DNA of 51,507 nt from Gemmatimonadota bacterium (GCA_039589315.1 JBDHHQ010000047.1:1-51507), one strand, 5' to 3'; shown: positions 11,730-31,208, numbered from the stretch's first letter. The notes: generated by a model not told the origin, from the sequence alone. Translations and numbers: made by a program.

Positions 11730-14381
11730 GTGTTCGCCGTGTTCGAGGCGCTCGTGGCGAGGCGACGCCGGAAGGCCGGCGCGTTCCGGGCCGCTTTCTT
11801 CGCGATCCGCATGTGGATCGATGCCCTGAGCGAGGGCTGGGTGGCCCGGATACGACTACGGGACGACGGGAGGAGGGGAAGGATGCTCGACGATCTATGG
11901 ACCGACCTGAGGCACTCCATACGCGCCTTGGCCAAGTCTCCGGTGCACGCGTTCGTTCTGGTTGTGACGCTTGCACTCGGGGTCGGAGCCACCACCGCGA
12001 TCTTTTCGTTGTTGTACGGCGTTCTGTACACGCCCCTGCCGTACGACGACCCGGGCGAGCTCGTCTCGGTGGTACACCGCGCCACGAACGTGGAGGGTGT
12101 TGCCCCGCGTGGTCCCGGCGGGACCGACCTGGTCGATTACATGGACGGCGTGCCGTCCATCGACGGCCTGGGCGGGGTGCAAACCCTCGAAACCAACCTC
12201 AATGACGACGACGGCGCTGCCCGCGTCGTCATGGGCTGGACCACGCCGGACTTCTTTCAGGTGATCGGCGTCCAAGCCTCGCTGGGTCGTGTGCTGCGAG
12301 CCGACGACTGGGCCGGTGCGGACCGGGCCCGAATGGAGGATCCGGACTTCACGCCTCCGCCGATGGCGGTCCTGCTGAGTCACGGGCTCTGGGCTCGTCG
12401 CTTCGGCGAGGACCCGGACGTGCTCGGCCGCACGCTACGGCTCAACGGGCAGGCGATGAACGTGGTGGGAGTGCTGCCGCCGAGCTTTCGGTTGCACATG
12501 AGGGCCGACGCGGAGATCTCGCCTGACGTAGACGCGTGGGCGCTGATGCCCGTGCCCTTGATCGATGCCGGGCGGGGCCTCAGCGGACTCACCGTGATCG
12601 GTCGGCTGGCCGATGGGGCGACTCTCGATCGAGCCCGAGCCGAGATGGAGGGCTTGCTGGAGGAGCTGACCGCGGCGCATGAGGTGCACGCTCGGCTGGG
12701 GACCGTCGTAGAGGTCGATCCACTTCACGACCAGGTGGTCGGTCCCGCGAAAGCCCTGTTGTGGCCCCTGTTCGGAGCGGTGAGCCTGCTCCTCCTGATC
12801 GCTTGTGTCAACGTGGCCAACCTCCTTCTCGTACGGGCGTCGGCTCGGGAGCGCGAGTTCGCGGTTCGCGCGGCGCTCGGCGTAGGGCGTGCCCGCGTTG
12901 TGCGCCAGCTACTCACGGAGAGCCTGGTAGTAGCGCTCCTGGGGACGGGCGCAGGCGTCGTGCTCGCGCTGTTGGCCGTCGAGGGTCTGGTCGGGCTGGG
13001 ACCGGCCAACCTGCCCCGGCTCGAGGCGGTCTCCCTGGAGGGTAGCGTGCTCTGGATCAGTGTGGTCGCGAGCGTGATGGTGGCCGTGACGTTCGGGCTC
13101 GCCCCGGCGCTGACGTCGGCGCGCGTCTCCGGCCAGTCACTCCTGTCCACGCGGGGAGTCGGCACGGTGGGGCCAGCGGGAGTCCAGCTGCGGCGCTGGC
13201 TCATCGTGGGCGAGCTCGCCGTCTCGGTGGTCCTGGTCGCCGGCGCCGGCTTGCTGGTCAGGAGCTTCGCGCAGCTTCGCGCGGTCGACCTGGGCGTCGA
13301 CCCTGAATCGGTCGTCGCCGTCGACGTTGCCGTCCCCTTCTTCAGCTATCGTGACGACGCGACCCGGTCGGCGTTTTTCGTCCAACTGGCCGAGCGAGCG
13401 CAGACGATCTCCGGCGTGAAGGCCGCGGGGGTCACGGCCCGATTGCCCCTCGAGCCGGGGAGCGGCGGTACGTGGAACGCCCCCTACGCGCCCGTCGGCG
13501 AGGTCATAGAGGCCGAGGACGCACCGCGTGCCCGGTACCGCTCGATGACGCCGGGCGCCATGGAAGCCCTCGGTCTCCGTTTCCGCGAGGGCCGTGGCTT
13601 CGTGGCCGCGGACGAGCAGCCAGGTGACCTGGTGAGCGTGGTCGTGGACTCGGGGCTGGCGGGCCGGTATTGGCCAGACGGCGCGGTCGGTCAGTCGCTG
13701 GAGATTCGTGTGGCCGGCTACACCGGGCAGCCATCCACCGTCCAGGCCCGCGTGGTGGGCGTTACGGAGCCAGCACGGTTCACGTCCGTCGCGGAAGCGG
13801 ACGAGCCCACGATCTACGTACCTTACCACCAGTTCACCCCGGTCGACGGTACGCTCGTCCTCCGCTCCGATCGAGATGCCGCCGAGATCGCCGCTGAGGT
13901 GCGCTCGATCGTCGGTTCACTGGACGGAAGCGTTCCGGTCTTCTCGGTACGCACCTTCGGCGCGGTGGTCGACGGAGCAACCGCGGAGGCCCGCCACGCT
14001 CTCTGGCTCATGGGGGCTTTCGCGGTCACCGCGCTGATTCTCGCAGCCGTGGGTCTGTACGGCGTAATCTCGACGCTGGCGCTTCAGCGCACCCGTGAGA
14101 TCGGTGTGCGGCTCGCGCTGGGCGCGGTCGGCGGCGACATCGCCCGGATGATCGGGGTCGACGGAGTCAGGTTGGTCGTGCCGGGCCTGCTCGCAGGGCT
14201 GGTGCTGGCGTTCCTGGCCAGCCCGCTCCTGCGCGCGTTGCTCTACCAGGTCGAGCCCGTCGATCCCGCGACCCTTGGCGTCACCGTGATCGTATTGGGA
14301 ACGGTCGGATTGGTGGCGAGCTTGCTCCCGGCGGCCCGTGCCGCCCGAATGGACCCGGTGGAGGCGCTCCGTGAAGAGTGA
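11730..14381 (+). CDS. ADOP-type duplicated ABC permease 1 (N-terminal extension frameshifted; internal ATG at 11883)
   Basis: DLRHSIRAL...VTLALGVGATTAIFS, LLIACVNVANLLL, R.REFAVRAALG, second FtsX half GLYGV...REIGVRLALGA, PAARAARMDPVEALREE. Confidence 0.92.
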   Translation: MFAVFEALVARRRRKAGAFRAAFFAIRMWIDALSEGWVARIRLRDDGRRGRMLDDLWTDLRHSIRALAKSPVHAFVLVVTLALGVGATTAIFSLLYGVLYTPLPYDDPGELVSVVHRATNVEGVAPRGPGGTDLVDYMDGVPSIDGLGGVQTLETNLNDDDGAARVVMGWTTPDFFQVIGVQASLGRVLRADDWAGADRARMEDPDFTPPPMAVLLSHGLWARRFGEDPDVLGRTLRLNGQAMNVVGVLPPSFRLHMRADAEISPDVDAWALMPVPLIDAGRGLSGLTVIGRLADGATLDRARAEMEGLLEELTAAHEVHARLGTVVEVDPLHDQVVGPAKALLWPLFGAVSLLLLIACVNVANLLLVRASAREREFAVRAALGVGRARVVRQLLTESLVVALLGTGAGVVLALLAVEGLVGLGPANLPRLEAVSLEGSVLWISVVASVMVAVTFGLAPALTSARVSGQSLLSTRGVGTVGPAGVQLRRWLIVGELAVSVVLVAGAGLLVRSFAQLRAVDLGVDPESVVAVDVAVPFFSYRDDATRSAFFVQLAERAQTISGVKAAGVTARLPLEPGSGGTWNAPYAPVGEVIEAEDAPRARYRSMTPGAMEALGLRFREGRGFVAADEQPGDLVSVVVDSGLAGRYWPDGAVGQSLEIRVAGYTGQPSTVQARVVGVTEPARFTSVAEADEPTIYVPYHQFTPVDGTLVLRSDRDAAEIAAEVRSIVGSLDGSVPVFSVRTFGAVVDGATAEARHALWLMGAFAVTALILAAVGLYGVISTLALQRTREIGVRLALGAVGGDIARMIGVDGVRLVVPGLLAGLVLAFLASPLLRALLYQVEPVDPATLGVTVIVLGTVGLVASLLPAARAARMDPVEALREE

Positions 14382-14429
14382 TCCATGAACGACCCGGTGG
14401 AGGCGCTCCGTGAGGACTGATCCATGAGC
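14352..14429 (+). repeat. 39-bp imperfect tandem duplication of the permease 3' end/PadR start
   Basis: GACCCGGTGGAGGCGCTCCGTGAAGAGTGATCCATGAAC then GACCCGGTGGAGGCGCTCCGTGAGGACTGATCCATGAGC (3 mismatches). Confidence 0.9.
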
Positions 14430-14780
14430 GACGCGAGTCCCGAGTCCTTCTTGCCACTCAGCGCGCCTGTGTACGGCGTGCTGCTGACACTGGGTGAGCA
14501 GGCAATGCACGGTTATGGCATCATCGTCGAGTTCGAGGCGCGGACCGGGCAGGAGGGAGCGCTCCTGCCCGGGTCCCTGTACAACACGCTGGCCCGCATG
14601 CTTTCACAGGGTCTCGTGGAGGAGGTCCCGCCCCCGGAGCCCGGCCGGGACCCCAGAAAGCGGTATTACCGAGCCACGGATCTGGGTAGGAACGTCGCGA
14701 AGGCCGAATCGGAACGACTACGGTCGTTGTTGCGGTTGGCGGAGGAGCGAAATCTGGGCGGGCAGCCGTCGACGGCGTAG
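14424..14780 (+). CDS. PadR family transcriptional regulator (type A, FLPL)
   Basis: FLPLS...VLLTL...HGYGII...PGSLYNTLARM...RKRYYRATDLG. Confidence 0.93.
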   Translation: MSDASPESFLPLSAPVYGVLLTLGEQAMHGYGIIVEFEARTGQEGALLPGSLYNTLARMLSQGLVEEVPPPEPGRDPRKRYYRATDLGRNVAKAESERLRSLLRLAEERNLGGQPSTA

Positions 14781-14915
14781 CGCCCTTCAGCGTCCCTACC
14801 GGACGGAGCACGAGCTCGGTCCTCAGGGAGGATGGCTAGGTCCCAAGCTGACCGAGGACGAGCTCCCGACCTCCGTCGGACCCGGACGGGCCGCAACGCT
14901 GCCGGGACGGGTCCC

Positions 14916-17645
14916 CTACTCCACGGACATCGCCCGCACCGGATCCACCCGCGTAGCCCGGCGGGCCGGGAGGTACGCAGCCACGGCCGCAACCGCCAGC
15001 AGAAAGGCAGAGACGCCCACCAGCACGACGGGGTCCGTCGGAGATACCCCGAACAGGAGGCTTGCCAACGCACGGGTCCCCGCGAGCGAGGCCAGAAGGC
15101 CCAGGACGAGCCCCACACCCGTGAGGGCGAGCCCCCGGCCCACCACCAGGCGCAGCACCGAGCGCTTGTCGGCCCCCAGCGCCATGCGGATGCCGATCTC
15201 CCGGCTCCGCCGACCCACGAGCTGCGAGAGCACGCCCTGAATGCCCACCGCGGCCAGCAAGAGGGCGAACCCGGCGAAGGTCACCAGGAGCAGCGCGTTG
15301 AAGCGGGGCTGTGCCAGCGAGGCGGAGATCACATCCTCCATCGGCTGGATCTGATACAGGGGCTGATCGGGGTTGATGCGGCTGACCGTGGTCCGGAGGG
15401 TTGCCGCCAGGGCCGCGAAATCGTTGGCGGTCCGGACCAGTACCGCCATGTCCCTCGGTGTGAGTTGTCCGACGGGGAGGTACATGTGGGCCTGGGTCTC
15501 GCGGTCCAGCCCTCCGTGCTTTACGCTCCCGACAACGCCGATGATGCGGCGGGACCCGGCCCGGTCCACCCGTTGACCGATGGGATCCTCGCCGGGCCAG
15601 AACCGGCGGGCGGCCTCCTCGTCGATGACCGCCACGGGCTCGCCGTCGACGTTGTCGGTGGCGTCGAAGTCGCGGCCCCGGAGCAGCGGAATCCGGGCGG
15701 TCTGGAAGTAGTCGCCCGCCACGTAGCGCATGTTGGCCAGGTAGTCCTCCCCCGTTTCGCGCCCCTCGATCGTGAAGGATGCCGTGTTGTTGCCCGCGGC
15801 CAGGGGCAGCCGGTTCACGGCGCCGACGCTGCTGACCCCCGGGAGCCCGGCGATCCGGTCCAGGAGCTCGGCGTAGAACACCCGAACGTCCTCGGTCTCG
15901 GGGTAGCGGATCTCGAGGGGCGCCACCCGGAAGCTCACGGTGTTGGCCGGATCGAAGCCGGGAGCGACGTCGACGATGCGGCCGAAGCTCCGGAGCATCA
16001 GTCCCGAGCCGACCAGCAGCAGAAGCGCCAGTGCGATCTCGGCGACGACGAGCCCGTCCTTGAGCCGATGGCCCCGGCGGCTGGAGGCGCCCCGGCCGCC
16101 GCCTTCCTTCAGCGTCGCCTGGAGGTCCGCGGCGGACGCCTGGAGCGCGGGAAGGGTCGCGAACAACACACCGGCCAGGACCGAAAGGGCTGCGGTGAAG
16201 GCCAGCACCCGCCCATCCAGAGCCACCGCGTCGAGACGAGGGATGTCCGCCGGTCCGAGGCGCACCAGTACGCGGTTCAGGCTCCCGCCCAGGGCCAGGC
16301 CGAGCGCTCCGCCGGCCAGAGAGAGCATGACCCCTTCGGTGACCAGCTGCGAGCTGATGCGTCCCCGGCTCGCACCCATCGACATGCGGACCGCGATCTC
16401 GCGCTCCCGGCCGAGGGACCGGGCCAGGAACAGGTTGGAGACGTTCGCACACGCGATCAGGAAGACCAGGCCCACGGCGCCCAGCAGGACCAGGAGCGCC
16501 GTCTCGACATCCCCCACCATCTCGTCCCGGGCCGAGAAGACCCCGACGTTCCATCCCGAGTCGTCCAGGAAGGTGGTCTGCTCTCGGGCCATCTCCCGGA
16601 CGTTCCCGGCAAGCACGTCGGCGTTGGCCTGCGCGGCGTCGAACGAAACCCCGTCGGTGAGTCGCCCGATCACCTGCAGGTACTCGTTGGTCCACCGATT
16701 CGGGTCCAGCTCCTCGGGGGTGAAGGAGAGGGGCACCAGGAGCTCGGCCTGGCTCTCGAGGTCCTCGGGCACGACGCCCACGACCGTGTACGCCTCACCG
16801 CCCATCCGCATCGAGGTGCCCACGACCCCGGGATCCGCACCGAACCGGCGCTGCCACAGCTCGTGGCTCAGCACCACGACCCGGTCGTTGCCGGGCTCCG
16901 CTTCCTCCTCGAGGAACGTCCGGCCGATCTCTGCGTCGATTCGGAGGACCTGGAAGTAGCCCGGCGTGACGGCGGCGCCCAGAATGCGCTCCGGACCCTC
17001 GTCCCCGCTCACGTCGTAGCGGCCGAAGTCGATGGCGGCGAGCTCCTCGAAGACCTCGTTCTTCTCGCGATAGTCGACGAAGCCCGGGGCCGAGACGGAG
17101 GCGATGAGATCGAACTTCTCGTACGTATGGTGCAGGGTCGCGAGCCGGTCCGACTCGGGATAGGGAAGCGCGTTCAACAGGACCGAGTTGACCACGCTGA
17201 ACATCGACGTGTTGGCACCGATCCCAACGGCCAGCGTCAGGACCACCACGAAGGCGAATGCCGGGTGATGCATCAGATGTCGCCAGGCGTAGCGCGCGTC
17301 GGCAAGTAGATTCTGGAACACGGTCGTCCTCCCTCTCCCCCTCATCGATGACGGTGGCTCCGGACCCGCCGAACCCGGAGGTCCGGAGCGTTCACTGCGG
17401 CCTGTCCCGCCCCCACGAATCCGCTCGGTGAATGCCGTGGCCACGAGATCCGTCCCACCGCGAAGCCACGCCCGGGGCCATCCGGCGAGCCGTCTCCGGG
17501 TCGTCTCGTCCCGGAGCAGGTCCCGGAAGTCCTCGGCCATCTGGTTCCGATAGGCCGCGCGGAACGGGCGAGGCAGCAGCACCAGCAGCGTGCGATAGAC
17601 CGCGACCGATGCGCGCTCGACGACGGATCCCACGTGGTGGGTCAT
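14916..17645 (-). CDS. ADOP-type duplicated ABC permease 2
   Basis: TLAVGIGANTSMFSVVN, LIACANVSNL, REIAVRMSMGA, PARRATRVDP; ATGA overlap with PadR stop. Confidence 0.95.
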   Translation of the reverse strand: MTHHVGSVVERASVAVYRTLLVLLPRPFRAAYRNQMAEDFRDLLRDETTRRRLAGWPRAWLRGGTDLVATAFTERIRGGGTGRSERSGPPGSAGPEPPSSMRGRGRTTVFQNLLADARYAWRHLMHHPAFAFVVVLTLAVGIGANTSMFSVVNSVLLNALPYPESDRLATLHHTYEKFDLIASVSAPGFVDYREKNEVFEELAAIDFGRYDVSGDEGPERILGAAVTPGYFQVLRIDAEIGRTFLEEEAEPGNDRVVVLSHELWQRRFGADPGVVGTSMRMGGEAYTVVGVVPEDLESQAELLVPLSFTPEELDPNRWTNEYLQVIGRLTDGVSFDAAQANADVLAGNVREMAREQTTFLDDSGWNVGVFSARDEMVGDVETALLVLLGAVGLVFLIACANVSNLFLARSLGREREIAVRMSMGASRGRISSQLVTEGVMLSLAGGALGLALGGSLNRVLVRLGPADIPRLDAVALDGRVLAFTAALSVLAGVLFATLPALQASAADLQATLKEGGGRGASSRRGHRLKDGLVVAEIALALLLLVGSGLMLRSFGRIVDVAPGFDPANTVSFRVAPLEIRYPETEDVRVFYAELLDRIAGLPGVSSVGAVNRLPLAAGNNTASFTIEGRETGEDYLANMRYVAGDYFQTARIPLLRGRDFDATDNVDGEPVAVIDEEAARRFWPGEDPIGQRVDRAGSRRIIGVVGSVKHGGLDRETQAHMYLPVGQLTPRDMAVLVRTANDFAALAATLRTTVSRINPDQPLYQIQPMEDVISASLAQPRFNALLLVTFAGFALLLAAVGIQGVLSQLVGRRSREIGIRMALGADKRSVLRLVVGRGLALTGVGLVLGLLASLAGTRALASLLFGVSPTDPVVLVGVSAFLLAVAAVAAYLPARRATRVDPVRAMSVE

Positions 17646-17995
17646 CCCTCGGGTACCAGGTCCTTGGCACGCGCCAGGTCAGCCAGGTACGCCAGGCGCC
17701 CCCCTTCGGCCGTGAGCACCTGCTGGCCCAGCTCGGTGATCTCGAACAGCTGACGGGGATGACGCCCCCGCTCGGCCTCGCGCTCCTCACCCTCCCGGAC
17801 CAGCCCCTCCTGGGCCAGGCGCCGGAGTGCGCCGTACACGGTGCCGGGCCCCACCGCCTTCCCGGAGGACGCTTCCAGCTGCTTCATGATGCCGTAGCCG
17901 TGGCGCGGCTCGTCCACCAACGCCAGCAGCACGTGAAACGTGGTGGCGGTCAGAGGAAGGAACGCGTCCAGCGAGCGTTCGGATCGTGCTGGCAT
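17642..17995 (-). CDS. PadR family transcriptional regulator (type A, FLPL)
   Basis: FLPLTATTFHVLLAL...HGYGIM...GPGTVYGALRRL...RQLFEITELG. Confidence 0.93.
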   Translation of the reverse strand: MPARSERSLDAFLPLTATTFHVLLALVDEPRHGYGIMKQLEASSGKAVGPGTVYGALRRLAQEGLVREGEEREAERGRHPRQLFEITELGQQVLTAEGGRLAYLADLARAKDLVPEG

Positions 17996-18037
17996 GGGTG
18001 TGGCCTCGTCGGTCGTGGCTGGGGTGGCCCCCGTGAT

Positions 18038-18081
18038 TATTACGTCGTGCTGAATATTACGTGCCACATAGCAATAGACAA
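18038..18081 (-). promoter_or_regulatory. Promoter/operator region of PadR-permease 2
   Basis: Minus TTGTCT-N16-TAATAT; direct repeat TATTACGT at 18038 and 18055. Confidence 0.5.
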
Positions 18082-18211
18082 GGCGATGGCGCTGAGGGTT
18101 GGAATGGTGGGCCGGGGTGGTGTGCGACAGGAGCTCGTCGAAGAGCCGTGGGGGCCCGAGATCAGGCACTCGGGGCGGCGCCCGGGGCCCAGTCGGACCC
18201 CGGGGCTGCTC

Positions 18212-20860
18212 TCACTCCCCTTTCAGAGACGCCACCGGATCCACCCGTGCCGTTCGGCGCGCCGGCAGGTAGGTCGACGCCATGGCAGCCAGCGCCAGCA
18301 CTCCACCCGCGGCAAGGAACGCCAGCGGATCCCTGGCTTGGACATCGTAGAGCATGGAGCCCAGGAGCCCGACGGCCCAGAACGCGATGCCGATTCCGGC
18401 CGCCATCCCCAGCAGCACGGGGGCGAGTCCCTCTTGGACGAACATGCGCGACAGCGCCGCGCTGCTCGCGCCGACCGCCATGCGGATCCCGATCTCCTTC
18501 CTCCGCAGCACAACCGAGTACGCCACGACGCCGTACACGCCGAGGATCGACAGAAGCAACGCCGCGAGGGCGAATCCGCCGAGAACGTGTGCGCTGACTC
18601 GCTCGGTGGCGATGGCCACCCGGCGGTCCTCGAGGGCGGGACCGATGTCGTACAGCGGCTGATTGGGGTCGAGCTCGGCCAGGGCCGTGCGCACCGGGCC
18701 CACCTGGTCGTCGGACGCCGCCGTGCGAAGCAGGAAGACCTGCCCGAGCCACGGCTCCTGGGCCATGGGCGAGAAGACAGCCAGGAGGGGAGGCCCCGGT
18801 TCGATCCCCACACCCTGGAGATCCTCGACCACGCCCACCACCTCACGCAGAACCGGATCAGTGCTCACGCCGGTTCGAATGAAACGACGCCACGAACCCG
18901 TGCTGATCCGCTTCCCGATCGCGCTCTCGCCCGGCCATGCCCGCTCCGCGAGGGCCCGGGTCATGATCACGACCGGCGTCGAGCCTGCCACGTCCTGCTC
19001 CGTGAAGCCCCGGCCCTCGATCACCTCGATTCCCATCACGTCGAAGTAGTCCGGGGATACGGCGTTCTCGGTGGCGGCACTCCGGTATTCTTCGCCCTCG
19101 AGCCCATCGATCTGGAATAGCTTTCGCGGCCCGACCGTGGGGTTGGGCATCGCGGCCACCGCCGCCTTCTCCACGCCTGGAAGGCCGCGCAGCCGATCCA
19201 GCGCGGACGCGGAGAACTGCGCGATCTCGACGTCGAAGGAATACCGGTCGTCATCCAGCTCGGTCTGGGCCCGTAGCACTCCGCTCAGCGAATAGCCGGG
19301 GTCCCGATCCAGCAGGTTACCGAGACTGCGGAGCAGCACGCCGCTTCCAGCGAGGAGCACGATGGCCATGGTGACCTCGGCGGCCACGAGGCCCCTGAGG
19401 AGCCGCCTGCCCCGGGCGGTCAGCGTCTGGCGACTGGTGGCCAACGCGGCGGCCGGCGGCCGGCTGGCCGCCGCGTGGGCGGGCAGCAGTCCGAACAGAA
19501 TCGTCGCTCCGACGGCCAGGCCGGCCGAGAACAGGATCGTGATGGCGTCGACCGACAGCTCTTCGACCCGGGGCAGGGTGCTCCCGGCCCCCCTTTGGAG
19601 CACTTCGACCCCGCCGTAGGCCAGGACCAGGCCCACGAGTCCGCCAGTGCCCGAGAGCAAGAGCCCTTCGGTCAGGAGCTGGCGCGTGATCCGCAGGCGG
19701 CTCGCGCCCAAAGCTTTTCGGGCGGCCCACTCTCCGGACCGGCCGACGCTCCGGACGAGCTGCAGTCCGGAGAGGTTCACGCACACCATGACCAGCAGCA
19801 GCCCTGAGGCGCCCAGCAGAATCCACAGCGGACGGCGGACCGAGCCCACCAGCCGGGTGCGGAGGTCGTACGCCCGGGTGATCCATCCTTCACTGCCGCG
19901 AGATTCCAGGAACTCCGTGAGAACGCCCTCGGCTTCGGCCCGAGCCTGTTCCAGCGATGTCCCGGGAGCCAGCCGCCCGATCATCCGAAGGGTCGAGACG
20001 AGGTCGCCCTGCAGCGATGCGAACGCTTCCAGGGGAAGGTATATATCGACCGGCCGGTCGCCGGCTCCGCTTCGGGCGTCGAGCTCTTGAACGAGGCGGA
20101 CCTCGGGAGGCATTACCCCGATCACCTCGTAGCTCTCACCCCCCAACGTCAGCGTCCGGCCCAGGGCGGCCGTAGGGCCTGACAGGTGCTGGTCGGCGAA
20201 CTCGTGACTCAGGACCGCCACCCGGGCACCCGCGGCCTCTTCCGCTCGGTTGAAGACTCGGCCCACGACCGGCTGCAGACCCGTGATGGGAAAGAACGTG
20301 TCGCTCGTGCGCGTGGCCGTGACCCGGACCGCCCGGTCCGCCGTAGCCAGGTTGAATGCCGTCGTCGAAAACACCGCCAAGTCCACGGACCGCAGCCGCT
20401 GGCCCAGCTCGCGGAACTGGGCGTAGGAGTACTGCCAGTCCTGGATGGACCGCTCGGGCATCTCCTGGCTGAAGTAGACGAGTCCCTCGGGCTCGGGAAG
20501 CGGCAGCTGCCGAAGCACGACTCCGTTCACGACGCTGAACAGCGCCGCATTCACCCCGATTCCGAGCCCCAGCGTCACGACCATAACGGCCGTGAGTCCT
20601 GGCGATCTGGCCAACGTGCGCACGGCCGCTCGCAGATCCCCGTTCCATCCGTTCATCATCCCCTCCCGTCGCCACAGCCAAACCGCATCGATGAAGCACG
20701 TGCATGTCCTGAACAGCATTCCTGGACCCGATCGGCCGGACCGGATCGCGAATCCCACCTCACCCTCCCACTCCCGTCGCCAGTCCTCACGGGCGCCGGG
20801 CGGCGCCAGGCGCGAGGCCACGTCGAACAGCCACCGGTAGGGGTAGGGTAGGGGGGACAT
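18212..20860 (-). CDS. ADOP-type duplicated ABC permease 3
   Basis: Start MSPLPYPY overlaps PadR stop (TGATG); TLGLGIGVNAALFSVVN, GVYGVVAY...EIGIRMAVGA, PARRTARVDP. Confidence 0.95.
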   Translation of the reverse strand: MSPLPYPYRWLFDVASRLAPPGAREDWRREWEGEVGFAIRSGRSGPGMLFRTCTCFIDAVWLWRREGMMNGWNGDLRAAVRTLARSPGLTAVMVVTLGLGIGVNAALFSVVNGVVLRQLPLPEPEGLVYFSQEMPERSIQDWQYSYAQFRELGQRLRSVDLAVFSTTAFNLATADRAVRVTATRTSDTFFPITGLQPVVGRVFNRAEEAAGARVAVLSHEFADQHLSGPTAALGRTLTLGGESYEVIGVMPPEVRLVQELDARSGAGDRPVDIYLPLEAFASLQGDLVSTLRMIGRLAPGTSLEQARAEAEGVLTEFLESRGSEGWITRAYDLRTRLVGSVRRPLWILLGASGLLLVMVCVNLSGLQLVRSVGRSGEWAARKALGASRLRITRQLLTEGLLLSGTGGLVGLVLAYGGVEVLQRGAGSTLPRVEELSVDAITILFSAGLAVGATILFGLLPAHAAASRPPAAALATSRQTLTARGRRLLRGLVAAEVTMAIVLLAGSGVLLRSLGNLLDRDPGYSLSGVLRAQTELDDDRYSFDVEIAQFSASALDRLRGLPGVEKAAVAAMPNPTVGPRKLFQIDGLEGEEYRSAATENAVSPDYFDVMGIEVIEGRGFTEQDVAGSTPVVIMTRALAERAWPGESAIGKRISTGSWRRFIRTGVSTDPVLREVVGVVEDLQGVGIEPGPPLLAVFSPMAQEPWLGQVFLLRTAASDDQVGPVRTALAELDPNQPLYDIGPALEDRRVAIATERVSAHVLGGFALAALLLSILGVYGVVAYSVVLRRKEIGIRMAVGASSAALSRMFVQEGLAPVLLGMAAGIGIAFWAVGLLGSMLYDVQARDPLAFLAAGGVLALAAMASTYLPARRTARVDPVASLKGE

Positions 20861-21177
20861 CAGAACGCCGCGTCTCCTGCCAGGTCGGTGGCTCGACCGA
20901 GAGCAGGGAACCGACGCAAGGCCTCCAGGGCCGCGTCCGCGCCCAGAGGAGTGAGCTCGTAGTACCGGCGTGGAGGCCGGCGGTCGGCCCGAGCCGTCTC
21001 GTCGGCCTCCCATCGGCCTTTCAGCGCACCGCGGTCCTCGAGCCGTCGGAGGATCGGATAGACGGTGCCGTCCGGAAGCCCGGTCACGTCCATGATGTCG
21101 AAGCCGTACCGATGGCCCGCGCGCACGGCGAGCAGGACTGCAGCGGTCGGGAGCGTCATTCGAAAGGGCGTGGCCAC
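20860..21177 (-). CDS. PadR family transcriptional regulator (type B, TGLPxGTVYP)
   Basis: GAGGAGG before GTG 21177 (alternative ATG 21159); AVRAG.RYGFDIMDVTGLPDGTVYP...RRYYELT. Confidence 0.93.
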   Translation of the reverse strand: MATPFRMTLPTAAVLLAVRAGHRYGFDIMDVTGLPDGTVYPILRRLEDRGALKGRWEADETARADRRPPRRYYELTPLGADAALEALRRFPALGRATDLAGDAAF

Positions 21178-21326
21178 CGGGCCTCCTCGGGCTTGATGGA
21201 GCTCGCTGTTGAGCTGAAGCGTCCGCCCCATGGACCGGCGCGACTCCATAGTTGGGCTGACACGTCCATGCCGTGCCGACGGGTCAAATTATGGGTGCGC
21301 GTCAGGTTATGAGTCGGCGCGACTCT

Positions 21327-21542: not shown

Positions 21543-21998
21543 ATGGGGACGACTCGACGGGCGACCCTCACCCTGGTCCTTGGCTGGACATCGGCAGCGG
21601 CCTGCGGCGAGGGCGTCAGTGATCCGGAGTGCAATCTCGTCGATCCCTTCCCGTACGCGATCCTGGTGGACGTCCGATCGCGGGTTACGGACGAGCGGAT
21701 CACGGAAGGCGTGGAGGTCCGGTTGGTAGGTGGGTCGATGGAAGTACTCCTGACGCCGTTGGTGACCGGAAAGTGGTCTGCCATGGTGCCGGCGGGAACC
21801 TACGACGTCTTCGTCCAGGCCGAGGGATTCCGTCCCTGGGAGGCTCGCGGCGTGGAGACGCGGTGGGGCGCATGCGGTGGCTTCGATCCCGTCGAGCTCG
21901 AGGCGCGCCTGGACCATGCCCCGCGACAGCGGAGTGCGGTTCCTGAGCGCTCGCAGCGACTCCCGCCTCGGCCCTCATGTACCGCTCGGCCGATCTGA
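21543..21998 (+). CDS. Hypothetical lipoprotein, carboxypeptidase-regulatory-like beta domain
   Basis: GGGAG SD; lipobox-like AAAC; PAGTYDVFVQAEGFRPW. Confidence 0.7.
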   Translation: MGTTRRATLTLVLGWTSAAACGEGVSDPECNLVDPFPYAILVDVRSRVTDERITEGVEVRLVGGSMEVLLTPLVTGKWSAMVPAGTYDVFVQAEGFRPWEARGVETRWGACGGFDPVELEARLDHAPRQRSAVPERSQRLPPRPSCTARPI

Positions 21999-22305
21999 AA
22001 GCTCCGCGCATCCACGGGACCTAGGTCGGCTCGTGTCAGGTCCTGTGCGTTTCGATCGTTCTTCCGGACGGCAGAGTGCCGCCATCGAGGACGGGGGTTG
22101 TGAGAACGCGGCGTGTGTTTCGAGGAGCCCTGGGGACGGTCCCGGTGGCGGCTGCGCAGGACGTCGAGGTCGTAGCAGGCGTCTACACCGAGGTCGTCGT
22201 GACCTTCGAGACGGGGATAGCGTGGCGCGACCCCGGGCGGCCGTTCCCGGTCATTAGATGGACTCCGTGCCCCGAAGAGCACGGTCCGTGCGCAGGAGCC
22301 CCGCG

Positions 22306-23628
22306 ATGAACGTTCGAGAAGCTGTCCGACGCCTCAGGCCGTTCGACCTTTCGTGGATGGCCACCGTCTGGCTCGGCATCGGGTTGATCGGGTGCGGCGA
22401 CCCGGCCGGGCCGGAGCCTCCCGGAGGGCCCGTAGAGCCGATCACCGTGTTGCCGCGGGCTCTCACGGCATCGGAGACCGAAGTCATCGGTCGGTCCAAC
22501 GCCTTCGGCTTCGAGCTCGCCCGACAGCTCGCCGAAAGGGACGATCGACCCAACGTCGTGCTGTCACCCCTGAGCGCCGCCATGGCGCTGGGCATGACCT
22601 TGAACGGAGCCGCGGGCTCCACCTTCGCTGACATGCGCTCGGCGCTGGCTCTCGACGGGCTGAGCCAGGAGGAGATCAACGAGGCGTATCGTGGTCTTCT
22701 CGACCTGCTCACGTCGCTGGACGGGACCGTCGATCTCTCCATCGCCAACGCGGTCTGGTCCAACCAGGAGGTGGAGTTCCACGCGGCATTCTTCGAGGCC
22801 GTCCAGACGGCGTTTGCCGCGACCGCGGAGTCAAGCGACTTCGCGGATCCTGGGACGCTCGACGAGATCAACCGCTGGGCCGCCGAGCAGACGCACGGCA
22901 AGATCGAGAAGATCCTGGATTCGCTGGACCCGGATCTTGTGATGCTCCTGCTGAACGCCATCTGGTTCGACGGGCAATGGACGACTCGCTTCGATCCCGC
23001 CGATACCCGCCGCGCCCCGTTCCTACGTGCAGACGGATCGACCGTCGACGTCGACATGATGAACCTCGACACCGGAGAGTTCCCGCTGGCTTTCGGGGCC
23101 GATTGGAGCGCCGCCGAGCTCCCGTATGGCGGCGGGGCATGGTCGATGGTCGTGGTCGTTCCAGTGGGTCAACGCTCCGCCCGGGAGCTGTTCGGGCAGC
23201 TCGACGGGGAGGCGTGGAACGAGATCGTCGGCCGTCTCACGCCCCTCGAGGTGGATCGGCTTTCGCTGCCCAGGTTCGCCCTCGAGTACGATGCCTTTCT
23301 GAACGAGGCACTCGACGCCATGGGCATGGGAGTCGCCTTCGGCCCGGCGGCCGACTTCACTCGGCTCTCCCCCATCGGTGACCGCCTGTGCATCGATTTC
23401 GTCCGGCAGAAGACGTTCATCGAGGTCGATGAAGCGGGCACACGAGCGGCGGCGGTGACGGCGGTCGGCATCGGACTCGAGTCGTTCATCGGGCTGGTGG
23501 TTGACCGCCCGTTCGTTTTCGCCCTCAGGGAGCGACTGTCCGGGACCATCCTGTTCATCGGACTGGTAGAGGACCCCACGTTCGGGGGGGAGCCCGCGGA
23601 GCCCTTCGTGGGACAGTGCCATGGGTGA
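22306..23628 (+). CDS. Serpin family lipoprotein
   Basis: AGGAG SD; LIGC lipobox; NVVLSPLS, INRWAAEQTHGKI, NAIWFDGQW, hinge DEAGTRAAAVT, DRPFVF, ILFIG.V.DP. Confidence 0.95.
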   Translation: MNVREAVRRLRPFDLSWMATVWLGIGLIGCGDPAGPEPPGGPVEPITVLPRALTASETEVIGRSNAFGFELARQLAERDDRPNVVLSPLSAAMALGMTLNGAAGSTFADMRSALALDGLSQEEINEAYRGLLDLLTSLDGTVDLSIANAVWSNQEVEFHAAFFEAVQTAFAATAESSDFADPGTLDEINRWAAEQTHGKIEKILDSLDPDLVMLLLNAIWFDGQWTTRFDPADTRRAPFLRADGSTVDVDMMNLDTGEFPLAFGADWSAAELPYGGGAWSMVVVVPVGQRSARELFGQLDGEAWNEIVGRLTPLEVDRLSLPRFALEYDAFLNEALDAMGMGVAFGPAADFTRLSPIGDRLCIDFVRQKTFIEVDEAGTRAAAVTAVGIGLESFIGLVVDRPFVFALRERLSGTILFIGLVEDPTFGGEPAEPFVGQCHG

Positions 23629-23732
23629 GCCGGGGGACTCTCGGCGTCGATTCTGTCGGGCCTGCCACGTCGATCGCCCATGCGAGGCATGGCTTCGCCG
23701 GTCCTGCGAGAGCTCGGCCCCGTGAGACCGGC

Positions 23733-26405
23733 CTACTCTTCCCGGAGCACCGCCATGGGATCGGTCCGTGCGGCTCGGCGAGCCGGAATCCAACAGGCCG
23801 CCCAACCGACGAGGCTCAGCAGGATGGCCACGGCTCCGAAGGTCGCCGGGTCCGTGGCCGGGACGCCGAAGAGCAGGCTCTCCAGAAGTCGTGTGGCGCC
23901 CAGCGCACCGACGCCCCCCAGCACGAGCCCTATCAGCACGAACCGCAGCCCCTGACCCAGCACCAGGCCCGACACGTCGCCGGAGCGGGCGCCCAACGCC
24001 ATGCGCACGCCGATCTCGCGCCGTCTCCGTCCCACCACGAACGCCAGCACGCCGTAGATGCCACCGACCGTGAGGGCCAGTGCCACCGTACCGAACACCG
24101 CGAACAGCATCATCGTGAACCGACGGCCGGCCAGGGCCAGGTCGACCAGGCCGTTCAGCGTGCCCACGTCGTACACGGGCACGAGGGGGTCCAGAGACCG
24201 GACCACGTTGCGGGCTGGGTCGACGATGGCCAACGGATCGCCGTCGGTCCGGACAACCACGGCCATCTGCCGGACGGCAGACTGAGGGTGGGCCTGGTAG
24301 AGCTGCGGATCGGGGACGGCCTCGACCTCGGTGTAGCGGACATCTCCGACGACGCCCACCACTGTCATCCAGTCGTCCTCGTCGGGAGCGCTGCCCCATC
24401 CGATCCGCTGGCCCACGGCTTCGCCGTCGGGAAACAACGTTCGCGCCAGCGATGCGCTGATGATGGCAGTGGTTTCACCATCGGCCCGGTCGCGGCCGTC
24501 GAACTCACGGCCCGAGAGCAACGGGGTCCCCAGGGCCCCGAAGAAGCCGGCGGTGGCCCGGCGCTGGAGCACGGTCACCGCTTCGTCGACGCTCGCCTCG
24601 ACACGGGCCGCGGTCGTGACGGACGCCACGGCGCCCTCACCCGACACCGGCAAGTCGGATCCCGCCCCCACCGCCGTCACCCCGGGCAGGGACATGAGCT
24701 CGGCCCGCAGGCGCGTGTAGAAGTCGTGAGTGTCCGCGGAAGTGGGGTAGCGGCTGGACGGAACCGACACCCGGAACGTGGCCGCCCCTCCGCGCTGGAA
24801 GCCCAGCTCCTGACGGTCGAGCTCGGCGAGCGTGCGGACCATCAGGCCGGTGCTCACCAGCAGCATCAGCGCCAGGGCCACTTCGGACACGACCAGCCCG
24901 CCCAGGAGTCCCCCGCGAGAGGGGGAGCCCCCGTCGCCCCGCCGGGCGAGTCCGGGATGCATGGCACCCCGGCCGGCCTGGAGCATGGGCGCGAGCCCGA
25001 ACAGCACGGCCGTGGACAGCGTCACCGTGGCCGAGAACCCGAGCACGAGCGGGTCCAGGGCCACGTCGGCGATCCTCGGGATGGAGGGTGGCGCTGCGGC
25101 CACCACGGCCCGGAGGCCCACCATGGCCACGCCCAGACCCAGCACGCCGCCCACTGAGGCCACGGCCAGGTTCTCGACCAGGAGCTGCCGCGCCAAGCGC
25201 CCGCGCCCGGCCCCCAGGGCCCGCCGGACCGACAGCTCCTCGGTACGGGTGGTGGACCGGGCCAGCGTCAGGTTGGCCACATTCACGCAGGCGATCAGGA
25301 GCACCAGCCCGACCATGGCGAAGGTGGCCCAGATCGCGGGTCGCACGTCGCCCACGACCATCTCGTGGAGCTCCTCCACGGTGGCGTGCCAGCCCGCGCT
25401 CCGGCGATCGGTCTCGCCGATGGCGTCGAGCACCGCGTTGATCTCGCCTTGGGCCCGGTCGGCCGCCACCCCCGGCTGGAGCCGCACGAACAGATCGAGC
25501 CAGTGGGCGATCCAACCCGAGGTTCCCAGGGTGAACGGGATGAAGATCTGGGCGTCGGTACCGCTGATGTGGGCGTACGATTCGGGGAGCACGCCCACCA
25601 CGGTGAACGGGTTGCCGTTGATGTCGATGGTGCTCCCGAGGGCGGCCGGGTCCCCACCCAGGAACCGGGTCCAGAAGCCGTGGGTGACGACCGCCACCAC
25701 CCGGTCGCCGGCGGCGATCTCGTCCGGCGAGAACATGGTGCCGAGCTCCGGCACCGTCCCGAAGACGTCGAAGAAGTCGCCGGTGATCATTCGACCCTGG
25801 ACCTGGTGGGCTTCCTGACGGTCGATCAGCACGGTGAAGCTTGCAGGGAACTCGGCGCCCACCGCCTCGAATACGTCGCTTCGGCCTCGCAGCTGCTCGT
25901 ATTCCACTACCCGGAAGCTGAAGTCCGTGATGTCGCCGTCATCGGTGTGGGCCCAGGCCCTCACGATCCGTTCCGGATGGTCGTACGGAAGGGCGTCCAG
26001 CAACACCGTTCGAACCACGGAGAAGATGGCTGTGGTAGCCCCGATGCCCAGGGCCAACGTGAGCGCTGCGGTCAACGTGAAGGTGGGTGACCTTCGGAGC
26101 TGCCGGAACGCGTACCCGACGTCGCGTGCGAGCGATTCGATGCCCATGCTTCCTCCCGTAACTCCCCCTCCACCCTGGGCCTTGAACCCCCGGGTCCGGG
26201 TAGCACTCGTGCGGCGGAGAACCCATACCGAGGTCAGGACCTGCCGGAGGTACCACACGTCGGCCGCCAACCAGAGTCGGTGGGGCCTCTGGAACTCGGC
26301 GTATTCGTCCGCGAGATCATCCAGCAGGCGCCTGGCGTCGTCGGCCTCCAACAGCAGACCGGCGATCCAGTCGGCCACCCGGGGCGGCGTGGCCCTGCGG
26401 GTCAC
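23733..26405 (-). CDS. ADOP-type duplicated ABC permease 4
   Basis: GTGA overlap with PadR stop; TLALGIGATTAIFSVV, LLIACVNVANL, REIGVRMALGA, PARRAARTDP. Confidence 0.95.
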   Translation of the reverse strand: MTRRATPPRVADWIAGLLLEADDARRLLDDLADEYAEFQRPHRLWLAADVWYLRQVLTSVWVLRRTSATRTRGFKAQGGGGVTGGSMGIESLARDVGYAFRQLRRSPTFTLTAALTLALGIGATTAIFSVVRTVLLDALPYDHPERIVRAWAHTDDGDITDFSFRVVEYEQLRGRSDVFEAVGAEFPASFTVLIDRQEAHQVQGRMITGDFFDVFGTVPELGTMFSPDEIAAGDRVVAVVTHGFWTRFLGGDPAALGSTIDINGNPFTVVGVLPESYAHISGTDAQIFIPFTLGTSGWIAHWLDLFVRLQPGVAADRAQGEINAVLDAIGETDRRSAGWHATVEELHEMVVGDVRPAIWATFAMVGLVLLIACVNVANLTLARSTTRTEELSVRRALGAGRGRLARQLLVENLAVASVGGVLGLGVAMVGLRAVVAAAPPSIPRIADVALDPLVLGFSATVTLSTAVLFGLAPMLQAGRGAMHPGLARRGDGGSPSRGGLLGGLVVSEVALALMLLVSTGLMVRTLAELDRQELGFQRGGAATFRVSVPSSRYPTSADTHDFYTRLRAELMSLPGVTAVGAGSDLPVSGEGAVASVTTAARVEASVDEAVTVLQRRATAGFFGALGTPLLSGREFDGRDRADGETTAIISASLARTLFPDGEAVGQRIGWGSAPDEDDWMTVVGVVGDVRYTEVEAVPDPQLYQAHPQSAVRQMAVVVRTDGDPLAIVDPARNVVRSLDPLVPVYDVGTLNGLVDLALAGRRFTMMLFAVFGTVALALTVGGIYGVLAFVVGRRRREIGVRMALGARSGDVSGLVLGQGLRFVLIGLVLGGVGALGATRLLESLLFGVPATDPATFGAVAILLSLVGWAACWIPARRAARTDPMAVLREE

Positions 26406-26743
26406 GCCTCGCCCCCTTCCGGCTCCGGCAGCTCGATCCCCGTCCACATCGTGTCGCGGATTCGCCGCGTCCGATGCAGCTCGGCGGCGCCGGTCGGCGA
26501 CAGCTCGTAGTACCGGCGGGGCCGGCCACGACGGGCCGCTGTGCGGTCGCCCGAGCGCGACCTGATGAGACCCTTGTCCTCCAGACGGTCGAGGGTGGCG
26601 TAGACGGCCCCCATGGAAACCTGGGCGCCCGAGCGTGCCTCGAGCTCCCTTCGAATCGGGACGCTGTATGCGTCAGGACCCTGGTGCAGCAACGCGAGCA
26701 GCACCAACTCCTCGAACGAACCCAGGACTCCGGTCTTGCCCAT
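26402..26743 (-). CDS. PadR family transcriptional regulator (type C, LGxFE)
   Basis: GGAGG SD; LGSFEELVLLAL...GAVYATLDRLEDKG...RGRPRRYY. Confidence 0.93.
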   Translation of the reverse strand: MGKTGVLGSFEELVLLALLHQGPDAYSVPIRRELEARSGAQVSMGAVYATLDRLEDKGLIRSRSGDRTAARRGRPRRYYELSPTGAAELHRTRRIRDTMWTGIELPEPEGGEA

Positions 26744-26820
26744 CCACGTCCCTCCGTGCACCTAATGGGTCGTCCCCGCCGACCTCGCGGATTAAAACTA
26801 TTTAGTAGAGAAACTGTTCC

Positions 26821-27060
26821 GTGCGCAAGGTCACGAGTGCGCCTCGCCGCTTCACCCCTCCCGGGCTCCCTCTCACCGTCCCCATGGTGCTCGGGACGTG
26901 CGCATTCTGTGTGGGCGGCCCGGCCGCCGCGCAGAATGGCCATCCCGAGTGGTCGCCCGACGGGAGCTGGGTGGCGTTCCGGTCCGACGTGTCGGGAGAC
27001 AGCCAGATCTGGATCATGCGGGCCGACGGAACCCGTGTCCGGATGCTCACCCGTCCCTGA
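26821..27060 (+). pseudogene. Remnant of a TolB-like PD40 repeat protein
   Basis: Signal-like segment followed by a single blade HPEWSPDGSWVAFRSD...QIWIMRADG; too short for a propeller. Confidence 0.65.
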
Positions 27061-27067
27061 GCCGGGC

Positions 27068-27520
27068 TCAACCTTCCACTGAAGCGGCCAACCCCACGAT
27101 CGATCCGCACGGCGCGCGGACGAACACTTCGTCCATGCCGTAGAAGGTCTGTCTCCTCGGTACCAGCACGTCTGCGGTGAGCGTCTGCAGGTAGGGCTCG
27201 AGCGACTCCACCTCGATGAACAGCGTGGTGGCGCCGTGGGAGACGTCATCCAGGAGCGCGGGGACGTCGTCGGCCACGCTCTGGCGCGTCTGGTACATGA
27301 GCTCAATGGGCCCGCGCTGCAGGATCGCGAAATCCAGCCGGTCGTCCCGGGGCACGGTCACGGTGACCTCGAAGCCCAACCAGTCAGTCCAGAACGGCAG
27401 GCAGGGCTCGATGGCCTCCACGAACAGGATCGGGGTCATCTTCTTCACGCTCGGTGCCTCCTCAAGGGGCACGGCCGCCATCACGATCACGGCCAGGGCG
27501 ACGAATGCGGTCTTCGGCAT
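27068..27520 (-). CDS. VOC/glyoxalase-like protein
   Basis: TPILFV...FW...LGF, LFIEV, TFYGMDEVFVRAPCG; GGAGG SD. Confidence 0.85.
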   Translation of the reverse strand: MPKTAFVALAVIVMAAVPLEEAPSVKKMTPILFVEAIEPCLPFWTDWLGFEVTVTVPRDDRLDFAILQRGPIELMYQTRQSVADDVPALLDDVSHGATTLFIEVESLEPYLQTLTADVLVPRRQTFYGMDEVFVRAPCGSIVGLAASVEG

Positions 27521-28565: not shown

Positions 28566-28604
28566 CCCTCAGGCTCGCTCGCTGCCGGGGCGCCAGCCGT
28601 CTCC

Positions 28605-31208
28605 TCAATCCCGCAACGATACGGTAGCGTCCACCCGCCCCGCCCGCCGAGCCGGCATCCACGCCGCGACGCTCGCCGTTCCCAGCAACACGACAGATGC
28701 CAGGGCCAGCGCCCACGGATCGTGGGGCGCCACATCGAACAACAGCCCCTGGATCGCATGCCCGAGTCCCAAGGAGAAGACGACTCCAGCTCCGATCCCG
28801 AGAAGCGCGATGCCGAGACCACGGCCCAGAATCAGCCGCCTGAGCGACTGCGGGCGCGCGCCCAGGGCGATGCGGATGCCCATTTCGCGCGTTCGCTCCG
28901 ACGCCCCGAACGACACCAGGCCGTACAGGCCCACGGCCGCCAGCACCAGGGCCAGGAGCGCGAAGGCCCCGACCAGGTAGCCGATGGTGCGGGTCTCGCC
29001 CATCGATGCGGCCACACCCTGTCTCAGGTCGCTGATCCTGAGCGGGATGCCCGGGTCGGCCCCGGCCACCGCCGCCCGAATCGCTTCGCCGTCCGGGGTC
29101 CGGCCTCCCTGGCCCCGGGCGTGAAGGACCATCGACGCCGAGGCGTGCTCTGCCGGAAAGTAGACGCCGGGCTGGGCGGGTGAGCGCAGCGACCGCATCT
29201 GGACGTCGCCAACCACGCCCACGACGGTCCAGGGCGGGTTGCCGGCCAGCTGCTGGCCGATCGGGTCCTCACCCGGCCAGAACAACTTCGCCAGCGACTC
29301 GTTTACCGCGACCACCCGAACCGGCTCATCGTGGATGCCCGCGAGCGTCCGCCCCCGGAGAATCGGAATCCCGAGCGTCTCGAAGTACCCGGGCCCCACG
29401 ATGTTGTACTCGGTCTCGAGCTCCACGTCTTCCCGACCCAGGGGCTGCATCGTTGCCCGCGCATGCCCCCCGACGATCGGCGTCGAGTTGGCAACGGTGG
29501 CGTGACGCACGCCGGGCACCTGTTCGACGGCACGGACGACCCGGTCCAGAAGGTCAAGGCTGGTCTCGTCGTCGTAGCGCCTGGTGGATTCGATGTCGAG
29601 CACGCCGATCGCCAGGCCGGTGGGATCGAATCCCGGATTGGCCGACGTGGCGTTCATGAGGCTCCGACCCAGAAGGGCTGCGCTCGCCACCAGCGCGACG
29701 GACAGGGCGAGCTGTGACGCAACGAGCACGTCGCGGAGCCGCGTGCGCGTTCGCCCGCCCGTGGTCCCCCCTTCCTTGAGCGCTCCCAGGACGTCGCTCC
29801 GGGCTGCCGTCCAGGCGGGCGCGGCCCCGAAGAGCAGCCCGGCTACGATCCCGACCGCGGCCAGGAACAGCAAGACCCGACCGTCCGCGCCGACCGGGAC
29901 CGACAGGGTGTAGGGGAACAGCATCGGCAGGAACCGGTCCGCCGAGAGAACGACCGGCACGGCGATCAGCGAGGCGAAGCCGGCCAGCACCAGGCTTTCG
30001 GCCATGAGCTGCTGAATGAGCCGGCGCCGTCCGGCTCCGAGCGCCCGGCGGACGCCGATCTCGGTACGGCGGCCCGCTGCCCGGGCAAGACAGAGGTTGG
30101 CCACGTTCGTACAGGTCAGCAGCAGCACGACGCCCACGACGAGGGCGAGGATTCCGGCCAGCGTCCGAGCCTCCCGCCGGCCCTCGGGATCGAGTCCGAC
30201 GCCCTGGGTCAGGCGGATCAGGATCTGCTCGTTGACCGGGTCCGCGTCGCGGAGCCGCGCCGTCACCACGTCCATCGAAGCCAGAGCTTCGTCGAACGTG
30301 ACTCCGTCCTTCATGCGGCCAAACGCCTGGATCCAACTCCATCCCCACTGCGCAAAGGGAAGGTCTCCGTGGAACCCCGGGTTCTGCATCGCGGGCACCC
30401 AGAGGGCCGGGGGAGTGCCGATCGCTTCAACCCCGGCGAAGCCCTCGGGCGCGACGCCGACGATCTCGTACGGTGCGCTTCCGATCGGGATCGTCTGGCC
30501 CACGACCGAGGGGTCACCGCCGTACAACCGAGTCCAGAGCGCGTGGCTCAAAACCGTGACGCGGTGCGCGCCGGGCTCGACGTCGTCGGTGGGGTGAAGC
30601 AGCCGTCCGACCAGAGGGCGCACGCCCAGCACCTCGAAGTAATCGCCCGTCACCTCCTCGCCGAGCACGCGCTCGGTGTCGGCGCCGGTTCCCAGCGTGA
30701 ACGACTGCGCCGTGTAGCCGGCGACGCCGGTGAAGGCCTCCGCCTGGTCCCGGATCAGTCCGAGGGCTGGCCAGGACCAGTTGTCCCAGCGCGGATCGGT
30801 CTCGTACGAGCGTGCGATCTGGATCAGTCGCTCAGGGGCGTGAATGGCGGCGGGGGACCGCAGCAGCAGACCGTTCACCAGCGAGAAGATCGACGCGTTC
30901 GCGCCGATCCCGAGCGCCAGCGTCAGCGCTGCGACCAGCGTGAATCCGGGGCTCAGCCCGAGCACGCGCACCGAGTACTTCACGTCCTGCAGCAACCCGT
31001 CCAACGTCCACCCCTCCGTCCTCGTCCACACCGCGTGCGGTAACGCGCCCACAGCGAACGACAGCTGTCCCGGCACGTCTCGGGCGCCGGCCGCCCGCGC
31101 TCGGTCCAGGGCCGCCAGCTCCGACTCCCACTCCTCGAGCCATTCCTGACGCCGAGACGGGGGTACGAGGGCAGCTGCGGCGCGAATGAGCAGTCGCTCG
31201 AGCTTCAT
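28605..31208 (-). CDS. ADOP-type duplicated ABC permease 5
   Basis: TLALGIGANASIFSLVN, CTNVANL, EIGVRRALGA, GLYGLV...REMGIRIALGA, PARRAGRVD. Confidence 0.95.
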   Translation of the reverse strand: MKLERLLIRAAAALVPPSRRQEWLEEWESELAALDRARAAGARDVPGQLSFAVGALPHAVWTRTEGWTLDGLLQDVKYSVRVLGLSPGFTLVAALTLALGIGANASIFSLVNGLLLRSPAAIHAPERLIQIARSYETDPRWDNWSWPALGLIRDQAEAFTGVAGYTAQSFTLGTGADTERVLGEEVTGDYFEVLGVRPLVGRLLHPTDDVEPGAHRVTVLSHALWTRLYGGDPSVVGQTIPIGSAPYEIVGVAPEGFAGVEAIGTPPALWVPAMQNPGFHGDLPFAQWGWSWIQAFGRMKDGVTFDEALASMDVVTARLRDADPVNEQILIRLTQGVGLDPEGRREARTLAGILALVVGVVLLLTCTNVANLCLARAAGRRTEIGVRRALGAGRRRLIQQLMAESLVLAGFASLIAVPVVLSADRFLPMLFPYTLSVPVGADGRVLLFLAAVGIVAGLLFGAAPAWTAARSDVLGALKEGGTTGGRTRTRLRDVLVASQLALSVALVASAALLGRSLMNATSANPGFDPTGLAIGVLDIESTRRYDDETSLDLLDRVVRAVEQVPGVRHATVANSTPIVGGHARATMQPLGREDVELETEYNIVGPGYFETLGIPILRGRTLAGIHDEPVRVVAVNESLAKLFWPGEDPIGQQLAGNPPWTVVGVVGDVQMRSLRSPAQPGVYFPAEHASASMVLHARGQGGRTPDGEAIRAAVAGADPGIPLRISDLRQGVAASMGETRTIGYLVGAFALLALVLAAVGLYGLVSFGASERTREMGIRIALGARPQSLRRLILGRGLGIALLGIGAGVVFSLGLGHAIQGLLFDVAPHDPWALALASVVLLGTASVAAWMPARRAGRVDATVSLRD

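Follow-up and report, generated by a model that had tools for sequence, protein, structure and literature searches.

Candidate internal translation start at the head/core junction of PadR-associated ADOP permeases in a Gemmatimonadota genome

[quoted passage not shown] The locus analyzed here has in common with this dyad the standalone PadR beside the membrane protein and the three-helix head, whereas neither an internal start nor a headless isoform is mentioned in the part of that paper considered here. In Listeria, LstR and LltR are PadR regulators that autorepress an operon whose membrane protein carries a DUF1700/HAAS-type head (PMC6624303). Their partners carry other membrane domains than the ADOP modules, and the sections of this paper considered give neither an inducer mechanism nor a second isoform.

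In-frame internal initiation is known from infB, clpB, mrcB and arcB (10.1101/520783) as well as from cheA, ccmM and spaO (PMC13515050). They resemble the genes described here in that a Shine-Dalgarno (SD) sequence and an in-frame start lie at a domain boundary and yield a product that lacks the N-terminus and has another role. These known cases are single genes with direct evidence, whereas the ADOP trait is a candidate seen in sequence; in contrast to them it is family-wide, is shared by dozens of diverged paralogues within a genome and by several phyla, and would strip a membrane protein of its putative repressor-binding head. The PadR-ADOP pair, the signalling idea and internal starts as such are known already, and a description of the ADOP junction start was not found among the open-access main texts searched.

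The analyzed window comprises 51,507 nucleotides of a Gemmatimonadota bacterium (GCA_039589315.1 JBDHHQ010000047.1:1-51507) and contains the permease genes p1 to p7 (Table 1). With 709-918 bits, p1 to p6 were assigned to the ADOP family (TIGR03434; curated cut-off 622.3), and each contains two MacB_PCD and two FtsX stretches. All five regulators (5/5) were identified as PadR (PF03551) with 40-61 bits compared to a gathering score of 27, and all five fall below the curated cut-off of padR_acidobact (TIGR03433; 31-41 bits versus 101.8). The window agrees with the described set of ADOP (TIGR03434) and perm_prefix (NF038403/NF038404) families in its permeases and in the head of p6, which on its own reaches 36 bits for perm_prefix_2 (NF038404, curated cut-off 35). 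It differs from the TIGR03433/perm_prefix set in its PadRs and in the head types of p1, p2, p3 and p5, for which no NCBIfam match was obtained.

Table 1. Coordinates of permease genes, PadR genes and junction start sites in the window.
Feature	Position	Strand	Basis or remark
p1 head, LYRLLLR-like first helix, broken by frameshifting deletion near 11730	11627..11882	+	three-frame translation; intact heads in L344-L346
p1 junction, AGGAGG-6 nt-ATG (11883)	11871..11885	+	probably the working start of p1
p1 ADOP core	11883..14381	+	TIGR03434, 739 bits (cut-off 622.3)
p2, headed ADOP, long form 909 aa	14916..17645	-	TIGR03434
p2 junction, GGAGG-6 nt-GTG (17321)	17319..17332	-	sequence
PadR for p2	17642..17995	-	PF03551; stop shares 4 nt with p2 start
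p3, ADOP with type B head (68 codons)	18212..20860	-	TIGR03434
p3 junction, GGAGG-5 nt-ATG (20656), tandem second ATG 20659	20654..20666	-	sequence
PadR for p3 (start inferred)	20860..21159	-	PF03551; stop shares 1 nt with p3 ATG
p4, headed ADOP, perm_prefix_2-like head	23733..26405	-	TIGR03434; structure model of head
p4 junction, GGAGG-4 nt-ATG (26147)	26145..26156	-	sequence; missing in 2/2 orthologues found
PadR for p4	26402..26743	-	PF03551; GTGA overlap; binding of p4 head predicted (recognition helix and wing)
p5, ADOP with type B head (68 codons)	28605..31208	-	TIGR03434
p5 junction, GGAGG-8 nt-TTG (31004)	31002..31017	-	sequence; orthologues: ATG in three, GGAGG invariant
Mini-ORF, 29 codons, out of frame, between PadR5 and p5	31205..31294	-	read from sequence
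PadR for p5 (start inferred)	31291..31602	-	PF03551
p6, headed ADOP, NF038404 head, without junction start signal	36946..39645	-	TIGR03434; orthologue; folding
PadR for p6 (start inferred)	39642..39971	-	PF03551
p7, headless ADOP, own SD and ATG 51413 at equivalent position	51404..51507	+	gene cut by window end

In total, 97 ADOP N-termini were found in the genome. Among these are 67 ADOPs that have a head in frame and are located downstream of a PadR, p1 being an exception to this coupling, and in 42 of the 67 the stop and start codons overlap by 4 nt. The heads were sorted into four groups of 27 perm_prefix_2-like, 22 unnamed p2-like, 10 perm_prefix_1-like and 6 type B heads, with two singletons left over. 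Upstream of p5 the two genes are separated by the mini-ORF, the ATG of which overlaps the PadR5 stop and the TGA of which overlaps the p5 ATG (two ATGA overlaps); it is a possible coupling relay from PadR5 to p5. In the p5 orthologue L252, PadR and permease overlap directly.

The relationship of the heads to HAAS was examined for the window's head types. One head, that of p4, was modelled with AlphaFold and consists of three consecutive alpha-helices (9-18, 21-39 and 45-75; pLDDT mostly 82-92) followed by a low-confidence linker, which is the HAAS arrangement. The GxP kink conserved in HAAS helix 3 is absent from the alignments of the window's head types, and the Pfam HAAS cut-off of 27 (PF22564) was missed by all of them: the p5 head reached 13.3 bits (E 0.11), and the other window heads gave no match. 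The best of the perm_prefix_1 heads reached 22.4 bits. The window heads thus differ from HAAS in sequence, and the model presented below places the head on the DNA-binding face of PadR. In a fold search with the p4 head, the top match was an ECF sigma region with a Z score of 8.0 (rmsd 3.4, 73 aligned), a value usual for helical bundles; the DUF1048 structure 2O3L was not among the 50 matches listed. The p4 head gave no NF038404 match, although it can be aligned with the perm_prefix_2 group. Profile-profile comparison between head types found weak similarity (E 0.003-0.4, probability at most 11%). A head-only profile searched against 1.84 billion proteins matched 9,474 representatives at E<=0.001, and on the breadth of these matches the heads are an old, widespread domain. 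The perm_prefix_2-like head was also seen joined to small non-ADOP membrane proteins (P0014, P0025, P0069, P0087, P0122, P0126, P0128, P0135, P0138 and others), as tandem repeats (P0004, P0006) and in C-terminal position (P0050, P0149).

Five of the six permeases had initially been annotated with an internal SD and start codon between head and core, and on re-reading the coordinates and spacings of all five sites were found to be exact. The sites are in frame and just before the core, the start codons lying 7-9 codons ahead of the residue after the conserved D. The equivalent site of p7 is a true gene start (ATG 51413) at the same position. The p6 gene, for which no clear site had been reported, carries a nearby GTG that reads GTC in the same-genus orthologue. 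The folding energy of the 50-base junction windows of p1 to p5 ranges between -6.2 and -11.5 kcal/mol, compared to -9.9 kcal/mol for the true start of p7 and -20.9 kcal/mol for p6, while eight core windows gave -9.9 to -25.5 kcal/mol in the same computation. The weak folding is a composition effect, since the z-scores against shuffles of the same composition are around zero or positive, that is, the folding is not below that of the shuffles. The initial annotation had also pointed out that both type B heads are 68 codons long. This length is correct for p3 and p5 but carries little meaning, and the equality is partly chance, because orthologous type B heads vary in length.

For the census of the own genome, 66 of the 67 headed genes were analyzed by hand for ATG, GTG or TTG in frame within codons -12 to -4, preceded by an SD word that ends 4-10 nt earlier. 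The strict signal (GGAGG and start) was identified in 28 of 66 junctions and the loose signal (any 4-mer of AAGGAGGTG and start) in 45, and an ATG is present in the junction window of 38 genes. About 30% of the headed genes are without a junction signal. As a negative control, the strict pattern was found in frame twice in about 4,860 core codons of p1 to p6 (frames assigned by hand), a rate that predicts about 0.2 matches in 66 nine-codon windows versus the 28 observed; it occurs once more in frame within the p3 head. As a positive control, the true starts of headless paralogues were used (29 rows, from which three headed genes were removed, and in which a few poorly anchored rows were scored as misses). 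Here, the strict signal was found in 10 and the loose signal in 13 of 26 sequences, so that by these counts the internal junction sites are as good as real starts. A 16S tail with the anti-SD CCUCC was found in 9 of 21 relatives and was not found in the own assembly. Several genes have SD-like purine-rich words but carry ATA, CTG or ATC where the start codon would stand (G000 C27 (-), C191, C16 (-), C11; L272, L292, L353). Of these codons, CTG and ATC recur in orthologues of the same genus. Such sites may be non-canonical starts or the outcome of decay.

The reading that we favor, and consider fairly probable, is that, within three head types, the majority of headed ADOP genes retain a junction start that works and is under selection, and would thereby yield two in-frame products. 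Translation of the long form would be coupled to the PadR stop, and the three-helix cytoplasmic head of this form would bind the DNA-binding face of the cognate PadR, by which the long form could serve as a membrane-tethered anti-repressor or sensor. The short form would start at the internal SD. It would be headless and a plain permease, because its architecture equals that of the natural headless ADOP paralogues. The internal start would thus supply permease without extra anti-repressor, and the core would survive the loss of the head. Initiation at the junction, the anti-repressor role and the dosage logic are what we infer from these patterns, whereas head-PadR binding is a structural prediction.

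This prediction was obtained for one pair, the PadR4 dimer and the p4 head, for which the model score was 0.61 compared to 0.30 for the best control. In a benchmark of this score, 116 of 157 solved pairs attained the mark, compared to 2 of 215 mismatched pairs, although these figures can be transferred to the present case only approximately. The runs share at least 90% of the contacts, the pLDDT of the partners is at least 74, and the model may echo a solved complex. PadR residues 26-28, 41-52 and 70-77 contact residues 23-38 (an acidic helix) and 54-66 of the head. These PadR segments are presumably the recognition helix and the wing, going by the known winged-helix layout. The model supports binding of the head on the DNA-binding face of PadR. 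A wider version of the two-product reading can be held tentatively: across the family, expression would be split between a PadR-coupled long anti-repressor, the acidic three-helix head of which covers the PadR recognition helix, and a headless permease, and their ratio could set the feedback gain of dozens of envelope-sensing modules per genome, with the junction as the hinge for loss or swapping of heads.

Distant orthologues were used for the analysis of conservation. For p5, the signal was found in 3/3 orthologues from other genera and families (60, 52 and 51% identity) with an unchanged GGAGG and differing third positions nearby; the start codon is TTG in the window versus ATG in all three. 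The headed orthologues of p1 (49-52% identity) carry SD and ATG in 3/3 cases, in different codons, and its fourth orthologue is headless and begins at the same SD and ATG signal. In an Acidobacteriota gene with a stop within the head, the SD and ATG at the core are intact. In the p4 orthologues at 61% and 46% identity, the junction site is present in 0/2. No orthologue was found in the genomes searched for p3 or for p2; the top match for p2 was a headless gene at 44%. Since 6 of 8 distant orthologues (46-61% identity) keep the signal, the junction start is, judged by this comparison, probably under selection in many lineages and dispensable in others.

These data bear on the alternative that the junction signal is a relic of fusion, in which PadR-head cassettes were repeatedly recombined in frame onto headless ADOPs with their own SD and start, and the signal now decays without making a needed product. 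It would fit that headless genes begin at the same position with equal signal strength, that the linkers are variable, of low complexity and UTR-like, and that decayed look-alikes (ATA, CTG, SD without start) exist beside clear losses such as in L276 and the p4 orthologues. We consider it unlikely, because the distant orthologues retain the signal despite differing third positions and with other codons and frames in use, the exchange of ATG and TTG in p5 preserves a start codon, the closest paralogues of p2 do not exceed 44% identity, and the frequency at junctions is not decayed in comparison to true starts (45/66 versus 13/26). Shuffling of heads and bodies may nevertheless explain some genes. 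The initial annotation had offered two explanations for the extension: a long isoform coupled to PadR with a short core-only isoform, or a recently fused small gene. The latter is rejected as a general explanation, given the old and widespread head domain, the co-inheritance of head and core across families in the orthologue comparisons and the p2 gene, for which the lack of a close paralogue argues against recent fusion. The former gains partial support from the enrichment at the nucleotide level, the conservation in distant orthologues and natural cases in which the head was lost while SD and ATG remained the same.

The p1 copy of the window is a special case. No PadR lies upstream of it or next to its headed orthologues, and near 11730 the reading of its head changes from one frame to another. 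This frameshift had escaped the initial annotation, as had the relation of the heads to HAAS/perm_prefix-type partners of PadR. It carries a frameshifting deletion, either real or an assembly error, because the orthologues keep an intact head. ATG 11883 is probably the main, working start of p1 rather than an internal one, since the head is frameshifted and there is no PadR upstream; as a two-isoform gene, p1 was rejected for this genome. Just before the head, p1 and its headed orthologues contain an AT-rich, promoter-like stretch (window 11600-11630 (+); upstream in L343-L345). In p1 this stretch includes a short inverted repeat, and in the headless L343 a palindrome that is repeated twice. 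The inverted repeat or palindrome before p1-type genes is a possible operator for a trans-acting PadR.

A second alternative is that the internal start is used mainly on a separate transcript, arising from an internal promoter or from mRNA processed within padR or the head, which would give a PadR-independent basal level of permease instead of two products of a single mRNA. The internal sites often have a better SD and are less folded than the overlap-dependent long starts, and expression of the core by itself is possible, as seen from genes with a missing or broken head. This explanation is rather improbable; against it, no sigma-70-like promoter was found in 11300-27200 (0.8 expected), which is a weak test.

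The wording of the signal at the codon level was compared with that of the core. Among the 28 positives, GGAGG is found in all three reading frames (8, 7 and 13). AGG accounts for 39 of 124 Arg codons at -16 to -8 of 65 headed genes, compared to 4 of 84 in a baseline of two genes only (0/27 in the p2 core, of which the first half was used, and 4/57 in another core). Val at -7 is encoded by GTG in 10 of 11 junctions versus 18 of 44 in the p2 core. In perm_prefix_1 junctions position -7 is also hydrophobic, with GTC, ATT, ATC or CTC, and Val is encoded by GTG in 0/4 cases; for these heads, SD and start were found in 3 of 25 junctions from four Acidobacteriota genomes. The junction start signal thus appears to be mostly head-type-specific and tied to heads other than perm_prefix_1. 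It is very improbable that the signal is a protein-level artefact, in which a linker rich in G, R and E and a hydrophobic residue needed at the start of the amphipathic helix, as present at -7 in all classes, give SD words and Met by chance or the SD-like word only makes elongation pause ahead of the first membrane helix, because perm_prefix_1 genes fill the same position without an SD, AGG, GTG and TTG show a rare-codon bias, GGAGG is spread over three frames and only about 6 GGAGG are expected among the 28 positives by a rough hand estimate from codon shares that is conditional on the positives and assumes the Glu share.

Beyond the own genome, the loose signal was identified in 20 of 29 junctions of a same-genus genome, the genes of which were chosen by head-only profiles. 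Retention in same-genus orthologue pairs was 16 of 18, although these are kin and not independent. In L276, the same-genus orthologue of one positive gene, the signal was removed by an in-frame deletion. Another same-genus orthologue (L270:214-288) contains an 18-nt tandem duplication that spans the junction ATG. Among 86 junctions in further genomes of the own class and in Acidobacteriota, Gemmatimonadota and Verrucomicrobiota, 54 have an ATG and 49 an SD and start; this set was hand-picked from a longer match list with profiles that contain the junction Met, and it includes near-duplicates. The signal is present in none of the approximately 11 perm_prefix_1-like junctions (typed by eye) of this set. 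From the best 150 of the 9,474 head-only profile matches, 58 were examined. Of these, 33 are fused to ADOP and show the junction; a Met at -12 to -4 is present in 18 of the 33. In approximately 17 others the head is joined to a small membrane protein, and at most 3 of these have a Met in the linker. For distant type B heads, the count at the junction was 4/6.

ADOP permeases are among the largest uncharacterised families of the Acidobacteriota and Gemmatimonadota, and the printed HAAS-PadR model is a proposal. A conserved second start would add a concrete mechanism to it, with a sensor form and an effector form, which could be checked by two point mutations. It would render the start codon calls of ADOP genes ambiguous and could explain why headless and broken-head genes continue to be expressed. 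The predicted contact between head and recognition helix would furthermore offer a direct hypothesis for the release of PadR.

In addition, a tandem ADOP pair joined by a TGATG stop/start overlap was observed in L351:1590-1640, the second gene of which is headless and without SD. Among the permeases of the window, a long VPS10/glycosyl-hydrolase-like repeat protein (33358-36849 (-)) and a Ser/Thr kinase-like protein whose tail is TolB/TPR-like (47032-50001 (-)) were recognized by eye. Two small overlapping ORFs before p7 (50660-51275 (+)) resemble what we take to be a DUF4160/DUF2442 toxin-antitoxin-like pair.
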